DNA of 64,000 nt from Alteromonas arenosi (GCF_030362855.1 NZ_JAUCBP010000007.1:308675-372674); one strand, 5' to 3'. Positions 22,833-44,983 are shown, numbered from the stretch's first letter. Numbers and translations: made by a program. The notes: generated by a model from the sequence alone, not told the origin.

Positions 22833-22909
22833 CGCGGGATGGAGCAGTCTGGTAGCTCGTCGGGCTCATAACCCGAAGGTCGTAGGTTCAAATCCTGCTC
22901 CCGCAACCA
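22833..22909 (+). tRNA. metY: Initiator tRNA-fMet (anticodon CAT).
   Basis: 77 nt and near-identical to E. coli tRNA-fMet (…GGTAGCTCGTCGGGCTCATAACCCGAAGGTCGT…TTCAAATCC…). The C1–A72 mismatch and three G-C pairs in the anticodon stem are initiator hallmarks. The CCA end is encoded, and a terminator follows. Confidence 0.9.
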
Positions 22910-22914
22910 AACAT

Positions 22915-22941
22915 AAAGCCCTGATTTATCAGGGCTTTTTT
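22915..22941 (+). terminator. Rho-independent terminator after the tRNA-fMet gene.
   Basis: aagccctga-ttta-tcagggctt followed by tttttg. Confidence 0.7.
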
Positions 22942-23273
22942 GTGTCTGAAATACATCAAAAATTCCCTAATTTTTTGCTTTTGGGCACGCGGTGCCCAAA
23001 ACGTGCCCATTTTGTGCCCTAGTAATTATCCAAGCGGCTCAAAAGTAATCTAAGTATTTAGTATCGAAGTACATCTCGCAGTGTAGCTAGCACATTGCGT
23101 TGAAGTAGTCCCCGAAACTCCCATAAAAACTTTATCCAAAAAAACAGTTCTGCAAATAACTCTTAACGTTAAACAAAAAATATCTAGGTCGAATAATTGA
23201 ATATCTTGATTTTCAGACCTACTTTTATAAATAAAAATGAATATATTTACAAAAATACACCACTGAAGTGAGA

Positions 23274-24605
23274 ATGAGTATGCTAAGTTTATTCCGCCGT
23301 TCTGCAAAAGGAGACGCAAATGAGATTAACATCAGCCCGTCTCAATTCAATGCACTTAATCATGCAGATGACATTGTGACCAGCCTCAAAAAATCACAGG
23401 CCTATATCGAATTCACCCCAAATGGAAAAATCATTGATGCTAATGATAATTTTCTTTCTGCTATGGGTTATCAGTTAGACCAAATAATGGGGCAACATCA
23501 CCGTATATTTTGTGAGAAAAAATACTCAGGCTCTAAGGAGTATACGGAGTTTTGGCACCGATTAGCCAACGGCGACTCATTTACTGGGCGTTTTAAGCGT
23601 ATAAAAGGCAATGGCGAACCTATATGGATAGAAGCCAGTTATAACCCGATTAGGGATAAAAGCGGTAACCTGGTCAGTATCGTCAAATTTGCTACAGATG
23701 TTACTCAACAAGAGTTAGAGAGTAGTCATTCACAACAGATATTTAGGGCCTTAGATAATTCCAGCGCAGTGATTGAATTTGAACTAGATGGAACTATTGT
23801 TCGAGCAAATCAAAACTTTCTTGACGCGACAGGCTATCAGTTAAACGAGATCGTAGGCAAACATCACCGTATGTTTTGTCCTGCGTCTATATCTTCAAGC
23901 GCAGAGTATAAAGAATTTTGGCGGCGTCTTGCACAAGGAGAGCATGTAACCGGTCTATTTGAACGTGTAAACGCAGCAGGTCAACCCCTGTTCTTAGAAG
24001 CCAGCTACAACCCGATAACAGATATAGATGGTAAAACTGAAAAAGTGATTAAATTCGCACAGGACGTAACTCAGCGTATCCAGCGCGAAAAGGATGCGAC
24101 CGAAGCGGTTTATACGACATCCGTCGAGACTGAGCAAATCTCTCTGCAAGCTGACCAAGCACTTGAGGAAATGATCAGTATCATGCGCGATATGTCTTTG
24201 GACGTAAATACAGCGACAAAAGATGTGATTGCATTAAATGCCGCGAGCGAAAAAATTAACTCAATTGTTGATACGATATTAAGTATTGCCGAGCAAACAA
24301 ACCTGCTTGCATTGAATGCTGCCATTGAGGCGGCCCGCGCAGGCGAGCAAGGACGTGGTTTCGCTGTCGTTGCTGATGAAGTTAGAAACCTAGCAAAACG
24401 CACAAGTGACTCAATCGCTGAAATAACGCATGTGGTGGATAACAATCGTGAACTGAGCAATAAAGTCGCACAAAGCATTGAAGGTACAGAGGACAAGGCC
24501 GCTAAAGCCGAAGAACTTATTGATCGAGTCAGTTCGGTGATTGGTGAAGTATCCAAAGCGGTCCAGCACGTGGTTGAATCGGTAGAGCGAAAGGCGGAGA
24601 TTTAA
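23274..24605 (+). CDS. Soluble methyl-accepting chemotaxis protein with two tandem PAS domains.
   Basis: No TM segment is present. There are two PAS repeats (…[21 protein letters not shown]… / …[21 protein letters not shown]…). The MCP signalling domain motif is [31 protein letters not shown]. The start is ATG 23274; the track ORF starts at GTG 23268. Confidence 0.85.
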
Positions 24606-25174
24606 ATAATTTGTTGATTTAGCTTAGGTAAACGTCGTTATAAAAACCATAGCATCTCGTTTTGATGTATTGCAGATGTAGGACTTTTTAATAGTGCAAA
24701 GCTGGGTGTGGTTTTCGCGGCGTATACCGAAGTCAAACTTTCCTGCCTCACTTTTTAAAACAAATGCAGTAAAAGAACTGCAAACATTCTTAAGCTTAAC
24801 TCAACGCATAGCTAACACCTAACCCCGAATCAACGGCTTCTAACTTGGTAAAGCAATCAAATATACCCCTGTCGCTTCCGCAGTTGATGGTTTTATAACC
24901 ATCAGAAATAACTCGTAAAAATGAATGTTATTGATCTCATAAATTATCGGTATATGTCATACGTATTAGCCGATAGTCAAAATGTGGTGTATTTCTATAC
25001 TGGTCAGACAAGTTGTGGCGCAATTTGGATGGATTTTACTCATAACAAGAAAAATAAAGATTCAAACGACAGTTACCACCGAACGAGTTTTTAGGTTTAT
25101 TCGGTACAAAGCACGTCGTGATTATTAACAGTCATGATGATGCGGCGAATGATAATAAAATGGGAGAATGACCT

Positions 25175-43653: not shown

Positions 43654-43695
43654 GTTGTTGTAGTTATCCAATCAAATCAACAAGGGTGACTTGAG

Positions 43696-44220
43696 ATGAA
43701 AAAGAATTTAGTACTTACGACATGTTTAGCAGCAGGGCTTATATTTGGCGGTACAACTGTCAATGCATACGGTCAAACGGAAGCTGTTGAGCAAGACATC
43801 GAGGTAGTTTCAGTCAAAGGTCAGCGCTCTATTGAATATTACGTACGGGAATACGAGCGCGCTAAAGTGGCTATGTATGATGTATTTAATCGTATAAATA
43901 CCGAACGTCAATTTGCGATTGATTGCCGAATCGTGAAACCGATTGGTACTCAAATTGCGCAACGAGAATGTCTACCGCGGTTTTACCGTGACGAAACCGC
44001 CTATCAAACGCAATTAGTGTGGTTGGGCGTAAGCAACAATTTCGTCGTTGATGGTGATCAGATTAACTTTTTGACCAAGGAGAAACAGGCAGAGTTTTAC
44101 GCGCACATTGCTAAGTTGGCGGAAGATTCACCAGAGCTGCTGGCTCATTTGCAAAACATTTCGAGTAAACTCGAAGCGTTGATGGTCAGAAAGTACGGCG
44201 ATCCAGACGCAATTGAGTGA
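43696..44220 (+). CDS. Secreted hypothetical protein (174 aa).
   Basis: Signal peptide MKKNLVLTTCLAAGLIFGGTTVNA. No recognised family. Confidence 0.5.
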   Translation: MKKNLVLTTCLAAGLIFGGTTVNAYGQTEAVEQDIEVVSVKGQRSIEYYVREYERAKVAMYDVFNRINTERQFAIDCRIVKPIGTQIAQRECLPRFYRDETAYQTQLVWLGVSNNFVVDGDQINFLTKEKQAEFYAHIAKLAEDSPELLAHLQNISSKLEALMVRKYGDPDAIE

Positions 44221-44415
44221 AGTTTGAATCGTATGCAGCAAGCCTTATTAGGCTTGCAGGCGAAGGCTACAGAAGGTATACTACGCGGCAATTAGTGAGA
44301 CGGGCTCCCTCTTCGGAAAGTAACGTTTCACGCGAGGCACTTGTTGTGAAGTCAACATGCCGATTCATTTTTGGAAAACTGGTGAGTTCACAAGTGTTTC
44401 CAGCCAGTATATGAG

Positions 44416-44439
44416 CCCCGCATTAGTCCGGGGTTTTTT
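44416..44439 (+). terminator. Hairpin plus T-run between the secreted-protein gene and rimP. It may be a leader terminator/attenuator or the end of a small RNA.
   Basis: CCCCG-cattagtc-CGGGG followed by tttttt. Confidence 0.4.
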
Positions 44440-44524
44440 GTTGGTAAATTTCAGTATCGGCACGTTGGTTGTAAAGTGCACTTCAGTTGGGCTATAGGCC
44501 CTTTTTTCGTATTTGGAGGTTTGT

Positions 44525-44983
44525 TTGTCGCAACTTGAAAAACGGCTAACAACAATGTTAAACGCGCCAGTTGAAGCGCTTGGTTTTGAGCTCGTCGGCG
44601 TAGAATTTGTCCGTGCGGGTAAGCATTCGATTATGCGTGTGTACATCGACCACGAAAACGGTATCAACGTGGACGATTGTGCCGAGGTAAGTCACCAGGT
44701 AAGTGCGGTACTGGATGTAGAAGATCCAATCAGTACTGAATACAACTTAGAAGTATCATCTCCTGGAATGGACCGCCCGCTATTTAAAGAGCAACACTAT
44801 GCTGCCATTGTTGGTGAAGTAGTGAATGTTAGGTTGTCGATGCCAATGAATAATCGACGCAATTTTAAAGGAACACTTGTGGCCGTTGAAGACGGCGTTA
44901 TAAGTGTTGAAGTTGATGGTCAAACGTTCGACTTGGCGTTTGCGAATATAGAAAAAGGGAACCTAGTTCCAACGTTTGATTAA
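44525..44983 (+). CDS. rimP: Ribosome maturation factor RimP.
   Basis: Collinear with E. coli RimP (…[11 protein letters not shown]…[25 protein letters not shown]…[14 protein letters not shown]…). The start is TTG 44525, 5 nt after GGAGG. The track ORF starts at TTG 44513, which would place the RBS inside the ORF. Confidence 0.85.

Follow-up and report, generated by a model that had tools for sequence, protein, structure and literature searches.

Additive flexible genomic islands (fGIs) of Alteromonas are integration hotspots that lie mostly at tRNA or tmRNA genes, where the cassettes differ in nearly every strain, and tRNA-Phe and tRNA-Met are the genes most used (Lopez-Perez and Rodriguez-Valera, 2016, PMC4898812). 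Integrons are another known variable region in this genus, as in the A. australica genomes (PMC4119200). The E. coli operon that contains metY and rimP has promoters both before and after metY as well as two terminators, t1 and t2, ahead of rimP, and it is regulated by NusA (PMC6511841). Neither a split of metY-rimP-nusA-infB nor which tRNA-Met gene is used was found stated in the open-access literature searched.

The present analysis concerns a stretch of 64,000 nt from Alteromonas sp. ASW11-36 ("A. arenosi"; GCF_030362855.1, NZ_JAUCBP010000007.1:308675-372674), a member of the facilis/flava group of Alteromonas. The whole stretch is referred to as the window, and loci from other genomes and metagenomes carry L numbers. 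In the window, the initiator tRNA-fMet gene metY (22833..22909, plus strand) ends 21,615 bp ahead of the start of rimP at 44525. An earlier description made from the DNA alone (the sequence-only reading) had placed both genes at these positions, and all of its coordinates were correct. The 21.6-kb interval is most probably an accessory region that is specific to this lineage, was built up in layers, and lies at a long-standing hotspot of gene gain immediately 3' of the metY unit, that is, an additive fGI.

Ancestral Adjacency of metY and rimP

A RimP scan of the genome collection yielded 80 loci, 30 of which were scanned for tRNAs. In the tRNA-scanned loci of Vibrio, Photobacterium, Parasalinivibrio, Aeromonadaceae, and two deep metagenome-assembled genomes (MAGs) of Alteromonadaceae, metY was located 0.13-0.33 kb upstream of rimP, usually after a tRNA-Leu gene, and the corresponding gap in E. 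coli K-12 was 206 nt. Paraglaciecola showed the order TonB receptor, pterin-4a-carbinolamine dehydratase (PCD), metY, 160 nt, and rimP, and kept the full ancestral spacer as found in Vibrio and Aeromonas, including a stem-loop, the GGGTCCAG motif, and the hairpins t1 and t2. Because Vibrio, Aeromonadaceae, the deep MAGs, Paraglaciecola, and E. coli all keep metY next to rimP, these data show that the adjacency is ancestral and the separation is derived. The sequence-only reading had taken adjacency as the state of E. coli and many gammaproteobacteria and the split as the product of insertion, and the outgroups and Paraglaciecola bear this out. The opposite outcome, with the arrangement of the window being ancestral across relatives and outgroups, was checked and was not what the loci showed.

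Both flanks of the window kept the gene order and orientation of relatives, and the cumulative GC skew climbed without a break across the region. The left core anchor (16498..19592, plus strand; NCBIfam) consisted of a TonB-dependent receptor gene (16498-19179) and the PCD gene (19290-19592), and the order TonB-PCD-metY was kept in Paraglaciecola, Glaciecola, Ningiella, A. flava, A. facilis, and A. ponticola. The right core anchor (44525..50784, plus strand; Pfam, NCBIfam, and Rfam S15 leader) comprised rimP, nusA, infB, rbfA, truB, and the S15 leader, and was syntenic in all 80 fetched loci inspected. The rimP gene starts with TTG, preceded by GGAGG 5 nt upstream, and encodes a RimP_N and a C-terminal domain. 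Gene order matched that of E. coli through truB and the S15 leader, and pnp was not located downstream of rpsO. A minus-strand gene for a 248-aa coiled-coil protein (50785-51824) followed rpsO instead, as it did in most of the Alteromonas, Glaciecola, Ningiella, and Agaribacter marinus loci examined.

The metY Unit and the Cargo of Relatives

The metY gene was identified as tRNA-Met(CAT) (ARAGORN; Rfam tRNA, 64.1 bits) and carries the hallmarks of an initiator, namely a C1xA72 mismatch and three G-C pairs closing the anticodon stem. Of the 11 Alteromonadaceae loci L006-L016, 10 carry exactly this sequence. A promoter-like element, TTGCGT-16 nt-TATAAT (22759..22786, plus strand), was read from the sequence and is conserved in a sister-species contig (L081) and in A. 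flava; its -35 box has three of six matches, and the consensus scan did not flag it. The tRNA is followed by a terminator that was strong in the terminator scan (22915..22946, plus strand; hairpin 22915-22938) and that looks like t1 of the rimP leader. A promoter and a terminator of its own had been attributed to metY by the sequence-only reading, and both agree with the present results.

The metY-rimP interval measured 1.2 kb in Glaciecola petra (LuxR/VpsT-type regulator), 3.3 kb in Agaribacter flavus, 4.9 kb in A. ponticola and MAG L006 (MHYT-PAS hybrid kinase and a response regulator-HD protein), 6.5 kb in Ningiella (a 979-aa methyl-accepting chemotaxis protein, MCP, and carbonic anhydrase), and 8.4 kb in Glaciecola MAG L014 (subtilase and a complete curli operon with a CsgD-like regulator). 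It exceeded 10 kb in Agaribacter marinus, which has the gene set of L014, and in A. facilis and L002, and reached 38.7 kb on a single contig in A. flava, where it starts with Mrr, DUF429, BrxR, and type I restriction-modification genes. In A. oceanisediminis, PCD was located ~25 kb from rimP and was followed by TldD/PmbA and MoxR/Bat genes, with no metY beside PCD. Except in a sister species, none of these cargos resembled that of the window. The 3' flank of this tRNA is thus a hotspot, as had been proposed earlier, with relatives holding 1.2 to ~39 kb of unrelated cargo there. The defence island at the homologous site of A. flava (L086 10986-20303) encodes an Mrr-type nuclease, DUF429, BrxR (WYL), DUF6933, and HsdM/S/R.

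The sister species is represented by metagenome contigs with a PCD gene that is 94% identical to that of the window. These contigs carry, in order, PCD, a GGDEF gene, metY, its terminator, a heptamer array, 220 nt, and a gene for a 319-aa tyrosine recombinase, which in L081 and L082 is of the integron type (TIGR02249, 421.6 bits; cutoff, 265). Four independent assemblies of the sister population stop 3-5.5 kb past PCD, and the A. facilis contig stops 1.1 kb past the tRNA. Such contig breaks are expected at a strain-variable or repeat-rich site. Upstream of the sister intI (L081 13959-15473, and also in L082), five 20-nt perfect palindromes, TTACTGAGA-AG-TCTCAGTAA, are spaced ~90-105 nt apart, too short for ordinary attC-bounded cassettes, and the contigs end there.

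DNA was gained on both sides of the metY unit, because a 3-kb gene between PCD and the metY promoter was inserted only in the window species and its sister. This gene (19714..22704, plus strand; Pfam) encodes a Y_Y_Y/Reg_prop-GGDEF protein of 996 aa and was seen only in the window and in the sister-species contigs L081-L084; in A. flava, A. facilis, A. ponticola, and Paraglaciecola, metY comes directly after PCD and the GGDEF gene is absent. It is a second insertion, on the flank of metY opposite to the cargo.

Layers of Different Depth in the Cargo

The cargo between metY and rimP is composed of layers that are shared to different depths. The oldest layer is next to rimP and consists of a gene for a 174-aa protein, a promoter-like element, and an extended rimP leader; orthologues of the 174-aa gene (53-72% aa identity) were found directly upstream of rimP in L001-L004. 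The intermediate layer is common to the sister species only and comprises the pnt operon, the RtcR/Band7/RlaP/RtcB/PcfJ genes, an EAL sensor, an OmpA gene, and a resistance-nodulation-division (RND) transporter with its membrane-fusion protein. The blocks shared with the sister species extended over 24885-28052 (pnt, 79% nt identity), 29183-36778 (RtcR through PcfJ-like, 82-85%), and 39182-43613 (RND and membrane-fusion protein, 77.5%). The pnt operon occupies an equivalent relative place in the sister species, with a molybdopterin oxidoreductase gene, not a tRNA, upstream of it. One sister contig overlaps L001 at 98.5% and hence continues to rimP; in comparison with L001, the RND transporter showed 95% aa identity and the membrane-fusion protein 79%. 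Sister matches to the EAL sensor and OmpA genes were patchy. Both genes are intact in the window and are fragmented or truncated in the sister species (L110 11479-12841, L113 8066-9782, and L001 3238-4832), and these fragments point to ongoing decay of the cargo.

The youngest pieces are a PAS-MCP cassette directly after the left border and two small open reading frames (ORFs) between pntB and rtcR. The PAS-MCP cassette had no homology to the sister-species contigs. In a collection of 5.8 billion proteins, the sole 100% match of the PAS-MCP protein was from its own genome, and the next full-length homologues were 56-57% identical; P0223 (L109), the homologue with context checked, is located in an unrelated context among sulfate-assimilation genes. 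The slot between pntB and rtcR measures ~0.6 kb in sister strains, or ~3.1 kb when it holds genes for proteins of 612 and 173 aa, which is a case of presence and absence within one population. The sequence-only reading had offered either an old, decayed island or stepwise insertions. The mosaic of blocks of differing phylogenetic depth favours the stepwise course over a single decayed island.

Borders of the Variable Region

The left border of the variable region is formed by a heptamer array, TGGGCAC-gcg-GTGCCCA-aaac-GTGCCCA-tttt-GTGCCCt (22982..23019, plus strand; sequence and alignments), with four GTGCCC copies, one inverted and three direct, at a period of 11 bp. The window is homologous to L081/L082 and A. 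flava up to exactly 23019, which places the synteny break at 23019/23020. The block from the metY promoter to 23019 was 88.7% identical to that of A. flava, and neighbouring genes were ~74% identical. The 38-nt array is identical in the window, L081, A. flava, and A. facilis except for its last spacer, and the spacer ahead of the array varies. The array was not present in A. ponticola and other genera, and the cluster was otherwise unique in ~1.9 Mb of sequence (the window and fetched loci), except for the equivalent site in relatives. The GTGCCC repeats noted earlier just 3' of the tRNA therefore mark the exact left junction and are kept in four species. Neither the array nor the palindrome recurs in the window, which was searched for a further copy of either as a candidate attR.

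Because the repeats sit exactly at the synteny break, the array is best read as the putative remains of sites that were bound by a recombinase or excisionase. When metagenome contigs were scanned with the pattern GGGCAC-N3-GTGCCCA-N4-GTGCCCA, 16 stretches from ~9 distinct families were returned, and a search of viral contigs for this pattern returned zero matches. An identical four-unit architecture was found in L091, 70 nt past a tRNA-Pro gene and followed by a gene of the Cro/C1-type helix-turn-helix family; in L087, an HTH_17 (excisionase-type) gene begins 36 nt from the pattern; and in L088 and L098, tyrosine integrase genes adjoin it. The array was also considered as an integron attI and rejected in this role, since it lies past the 3' end of intI. 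Downstream of the array in A. facilis (L107 10680-10790), A. flava (L086 10675-10810), and the sister species (L081 13770-13790), the 10-mer CCCGAAGGTC occurs one to four times, mostly inverted and interleaved with further GTGCCCA copies. This 10-mer is an exact copy of the tRNA-fMet anticodon-stem/variable-loop segment, and that downstream part is not in the window.

At the right border lies the gammaproteobacterial rimP leader (44377..44508, plus strand; RF01770 and terminator scan), with hairpins t1 at 44413-44436 and t2 at 44489-44501. In a local search, the leader of the window scored 34.5 bits (E 4.7e-4), below the gathering score of 47, and those of A. ponticola and Ningiella scored 48.4 and 44.2 bits, respectively. 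Both hairpins align with those between metY and rimP in Vibrio, Aeromonadaceae, Paraglaciecola, and E. coli, and both were found in every relative, split or not. The hairpin at ~44416-44439 that had been described as an orphan is in fact t1 of this conserved leader, which is accompanied by t2 in all relatives.

A promoter-like -10 box (TATACT, 44277-44282) and a clade-specific conserved leader of ~130 nt precede t1 (44277..44400, plus strand; conservation). The TATAAT/TATACT box with a GC-rich discriminator was found in the window and L001-L004, and the clade-specific leader was conserved in the window and L001-L005 only (about 9740-9900 in L001-L005). A simple promoter scan upstream of rimP stayed below threshold; the putative rimP promoter is therefore proposed from its conservation. 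RNAalifold predicted helices in the clade-specific leader with five pairs supported by compensatory changes among six sequences, and no Rfam family matched this leader. Its origin as a decayed tRNA was rejected, as it had no match to the tRNA model.

The metY terminator was the only other RF01770 match in the 64 kb, at 32-36 bits and thus under the gathering score. It matched E. coli t1 at 33 of 38 positions with one gap each, including the loop and the TCTGA tail. The metY terminator (22915-22938) and the rimP-side t1 form a degenerate 28-nt direct repeat with 22 of 28 positions identical, a score that was reached by 1 of 500 shuffles. This pair of t1-like hairpins at the two borders could have been left by the founding insertion or by a duplication, which is suggestive rather than established. 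RF01770 did not match the terminators that follow the tRNA in A. ponticola, L014, and Ningiella; the idea of a t1 duplication is therefore weak and confined to the clade of the window.

Origin of the Region

The comparison of loci shows that both the Alteromonas lineage and the Glaciecola/Agaribacter/Ningiella lineage acquired DNA between the tRNA and the rimP leader, the content of which then turned over independently in each. In the proposed mechanism, entry would have been by site-specific recombination at the tRNA-proximal border, with the GTGCCCA array as its relic. Later exchange may have involved homologous recombination through the conserved flanks and possibly local rearrangement, and the region would no longer be self-mobile. 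As a consequence, metY would stand alone with its own promoter and t1-like terminator, and rimP-nusA-infB would be driven by a separate promoter, with the conserved attenuators of the leader continuing to act on it.

Several results weigh against an accessory hotspot of this kind. No integrase, transposase, or excisionase domain was found by Pfam in any cargo ORF of the window, the tRNA 3' end did not recur in a pattern search allowing up to three mismatches, and an Rfam covariance search (E up to 10, 44180-44540) found no tRNA remnant at the right border. The sequence-only reading had likewise reported neither an integrase nor a direct repeat of the tRNA 3' end, and its observation holds for degenerate copies as well. 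Integron remnants were also absent from the window, with no intI and no match to the sister-intI palindromes; no formal attC search was made. The composition of the region equals that of its flanks: GC content was 0.465 inside and 0.467 outside, GC content at third codon positions was 0.449 and 0.439, and codon distance was 0.153 and 0.152 (Mann-Whitney p > 0.3 for all), and the tetranucleotide profile of the cargo was the same as that of the flanks. The compositional signature that had been expected from an insertion is thus missing, and for this reason a horizontal origin of the cargo is proposed from its distribution, not its composition. Furthermore, the pnt operon probably has a housekeeping function, and local rearrangement, not transfer, may account for some of the cargo. 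In the Alteromonadaceae MAG OZ252110 (L002 17524-20357), pntAA-AB-B (55-74% aa identity) sits directly past the nusA operon on the minus strand; local rearrangement is possible because pnt thus moves within the neighbourhood. The heptamer array is a candidate in its proposed role, and several of its pattern matches in metagenomes were plain tandem repeats or had no mobile-element gene in the ORFs examined. The metY-rimP interval of the sister species is known from partial contigs, and the tree discussed below was built by neighbor joining from four linked proteins without support values.

Other explanations of the split were weighed against a layered region. A single classical tRNA-targeting island of 21.6 kb that was inserted once, then lost its integrase and attR, and was ameliorated would agree with the position directly 3' of the tRNA, the conserved repeat array at the junction, the integrase at the equivalent spot of the sister species, and the degenerate t1-like hairpins at both borders (28-nt direct repeat, 22/28). 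This origin is unlikely, and it misfits because the blocks differ in depth of sharing: the 174-aa gene is in four species, a 19-kb core is in the sister only, and the PAS-MCP cassette is in none. Moreover, the DNA between the tRNA and pnt is different in the sister species (the integron integrase and the molybdopterin oxidoreductase gene, on separate contigs), its integrase is of the integron type and not the island type, and a compositional trace is lacking. If the array were instead a dedicated landing pad, an attB-like site that the host lineage maintains after metY and at which recombinases acting in trans repeatedly capture unrelated cassettes, with the t1-like copies at the borders as the footprint of the founding event, this would explain why synteny breaks at one identical base in four species; such a role is conceivable but rather unlikely. 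A chromosomal rearrangement without horizontal transfer, either by inversion or translocation of resident genes or by movement of metY away from rimP, is quite improbable in view of the order and orientation of the flanks in all relatives and the unbroken GC skew. It would account for the native composition, for the pnt operon downstream of the nusA operon in L002, and for a cargo of ordinary chromosomal functions (signalling, efflux, and transhydrogenase), but not for a PAS-MCP gene without an orthologue above 57% identity in the protein collection, and it leaves the integron, defence, and curli cargos of relatives at the same site unexplained.

The neighbor-joining tree of RimP, NusA, InfB, and TruB placed the unsplit Paraglaciecola between the split Alteromonas and the split Glaciecola/Agaribacter/Ningiella clades. 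With this nesting, one split followed by a reversal requires as many events as two splits, which leaves room for a separated arrangement that was ancestral for the order and an adjacency in Paraglaciecola that is secondary. This is very improbable, as Vibrionales, Aeromonadales, Enterobacterales, and the two deep Alteromonadaceae MAGs are all adjacent, and a deletion between repeats would leave a junction different from the full spacer of Paraglaciecola. Because Paraglaciecola retains that full ancestral spacer, two independent splits are more likely than one split and a reversal, even though the tree is weak.

Gene Content of the Cargo

The cargo list of the sequence-only reading (PAS-MCP, pntAA-AB-B, two small envelope proteins, 7TM-EAL, OmpA lipoprotein, and RND) was borne out by Pfam and translations, and its RtcR/RtcB module was present. 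The module is larger than was stated, as it also includes a tRNA-like gene, Band7/slipin, RlaP, and PcfJ-like genes, and the tRNA-like gene had been overlooked, as had the 3-kb GGDEF gene beyond metY. The PAS-MCP cassette (23020..24884, plus strand; Pfam) contains a coding sequence at 23280-24605 for a cytoplasmic PAS-PAS-MCP protein of BdlA-like architecture and has the lowest GC content in the region (0.405-0.415 in the GC profile). It is followed by the transhydrogenase operon pntAA-pntAB-pntB (24885..28053, plus strand; Pfam) and by a variable mini-cassette (28054..29172, plus strand; variable slot 28053-29182) whose translations gave a lipoprotein-like ORF of 116 aa (28295-28645) and an ORF of 160 aa with a signal peptide (28649-29131), neither of which had a Pfam match. 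Beyond the RNA-repair module, a 7TMR-DISM-GGDEF-EAL sensor (36060-38654) and an OmpA-like glycine-zipper lipoprotein (38767-39402) are encoded at 36060..39402 (plus strand; Pfam), and the RND transporter (39535-42606) and membrane-fusion protein (42607-43653) at 39535..43653 (plus strand; Pfam), with no outer-membrane factor gene found by Pfam among the cargo ORFs. The last gene before rimP (43696..44220, plus strand) encodes the 174-aa protein, which is predicted to be secreted from a signal peptide seen in its translation; it had no Pfam match.

The RNA-repair module (29173..35959, mixed strands; Pfam) starts with a minus-strand gene for RtcR (CARF-like domain and sigma54 AAA+; 29173-30777). 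A sigma54 promoter, TGGCAC-N5-TTGA, was read from the sequence at 30939-30953, and a ~460-nt untranslated leader (leader region 30939-31412) with a tRNA-like gene at 31079-31151 (ARAGORN; Rfam tRNA, 58 bits) leads to the genes for Band7/slipin (31413-32588), RlaP (32596-33435), RtcB (33463-34656), and a PcfJ-like protein (34748-35959), all assigned by Pfam. RtcR, the sigma54 promoter, and the RtcB ligase were present, and an RtcA cyclase was not found in the module by Pfam. The tRNA-like gene has an 8-bp acceptor stem of the His type, and the leader also contains a second T-arm-like hairpin. The leader was 97% identical to that of the sister species (L110 5366-5890 and L113 2202-2726), whereas the flanking coding DNA was 82-85% identical, and the "anticodon" of the tRNA-like gene was ATG in the window and TTG in the sister species. 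Because the leader is more conserved than its flanking genes and the "anticodon" differs, the leader has the look of a structured RNA that is under conservation and includes a tRNA-mimic domain. It resembles YrlA of the Salmonella rsr-yrlBA-rtcBA operon; the operon of the window differs from that of Salmonella in having Band7, RlaP, and PcfJ-like genes and in lacking Rsr and RtcA.

Comparison with Known Systems

The window provides a clean and datable example of a hotspot that breaks the deeply conserved metY-rimP-nusA-infB operon. Both halves of the operon appear to have been re-equipped, with the tRNA gaining a terminator and the ribosome-biogenesis operon gaining a promoter and an extended leader without loss of its two conserved leader terminators. 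The analysis also gives the borders of a flexible island to the base pair together with a conserved border motif as a candidate recombination site, and it corrects an annotation trap, as a "stray terminator" turned out to be a conserved cis-regulatory leader. Two leads could exceed the ordinary, namely the heptamer array and the rtc leader RNA with its high conservation.

In comparison with the E. coli operon, the window has the same order from rimP to rpsO, the two leader hairpins t1 and t2, and a putative promoter on the rimP side of metY, where E. coli has P2. It differs from E. coli in that metY is 21.6 kb away with its own terminator, in the extra ~130-nt leader before t1, and in the absence of pnp after rpsO. 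The location 3' of a tRNA and the phased heptamers, which resemble arm-type sites, are shared with classical tRNA islands and prophages (P4-type and related tyrosine integrases), and in unrelated metagenome contigs this array architecture stands beside integrase, HTH_17, and tRNA genes. Unlike such islands, the window shows neither an integrase nor an attR copy of the tRNA end, its composition does not deviate, and its cargo is of mixed age. Sedentary chromosomal integrons are known in Alteromonas and Vibrio, and the sister species carries an integron integrase at the homologous spot. In contrast to such integrons, the window lacks intI and holds full-size operons, not promoterless cassettes.

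The closest agreement was with the additive fGIs of Alteromonas. As in those islands, the site is fixed beside a tRNA between core anchors (PCD-metY and rimP-nusA), its cassettes vary by species and strain, and the cargo consists of adaptive and envelope functions. The published islands are from macleodii, mediterranea, and australica genomes, and the window represents a different lineage (facilis/flava). Unlike some of the published islands, the window has no partial tRNA repeat, which is an optional feature. With that exception, the region has the defining features of an additive fGI and is ordinary in kind, as additive islands at tRNA-Met have already been described. What is specific here is that the targeted gene is that of the initiator tRNA, normally the first gene of the rimP-nusA-infB operon, that the borders are exact to the base, and that both halves of the operon have compensating regulatory elements.

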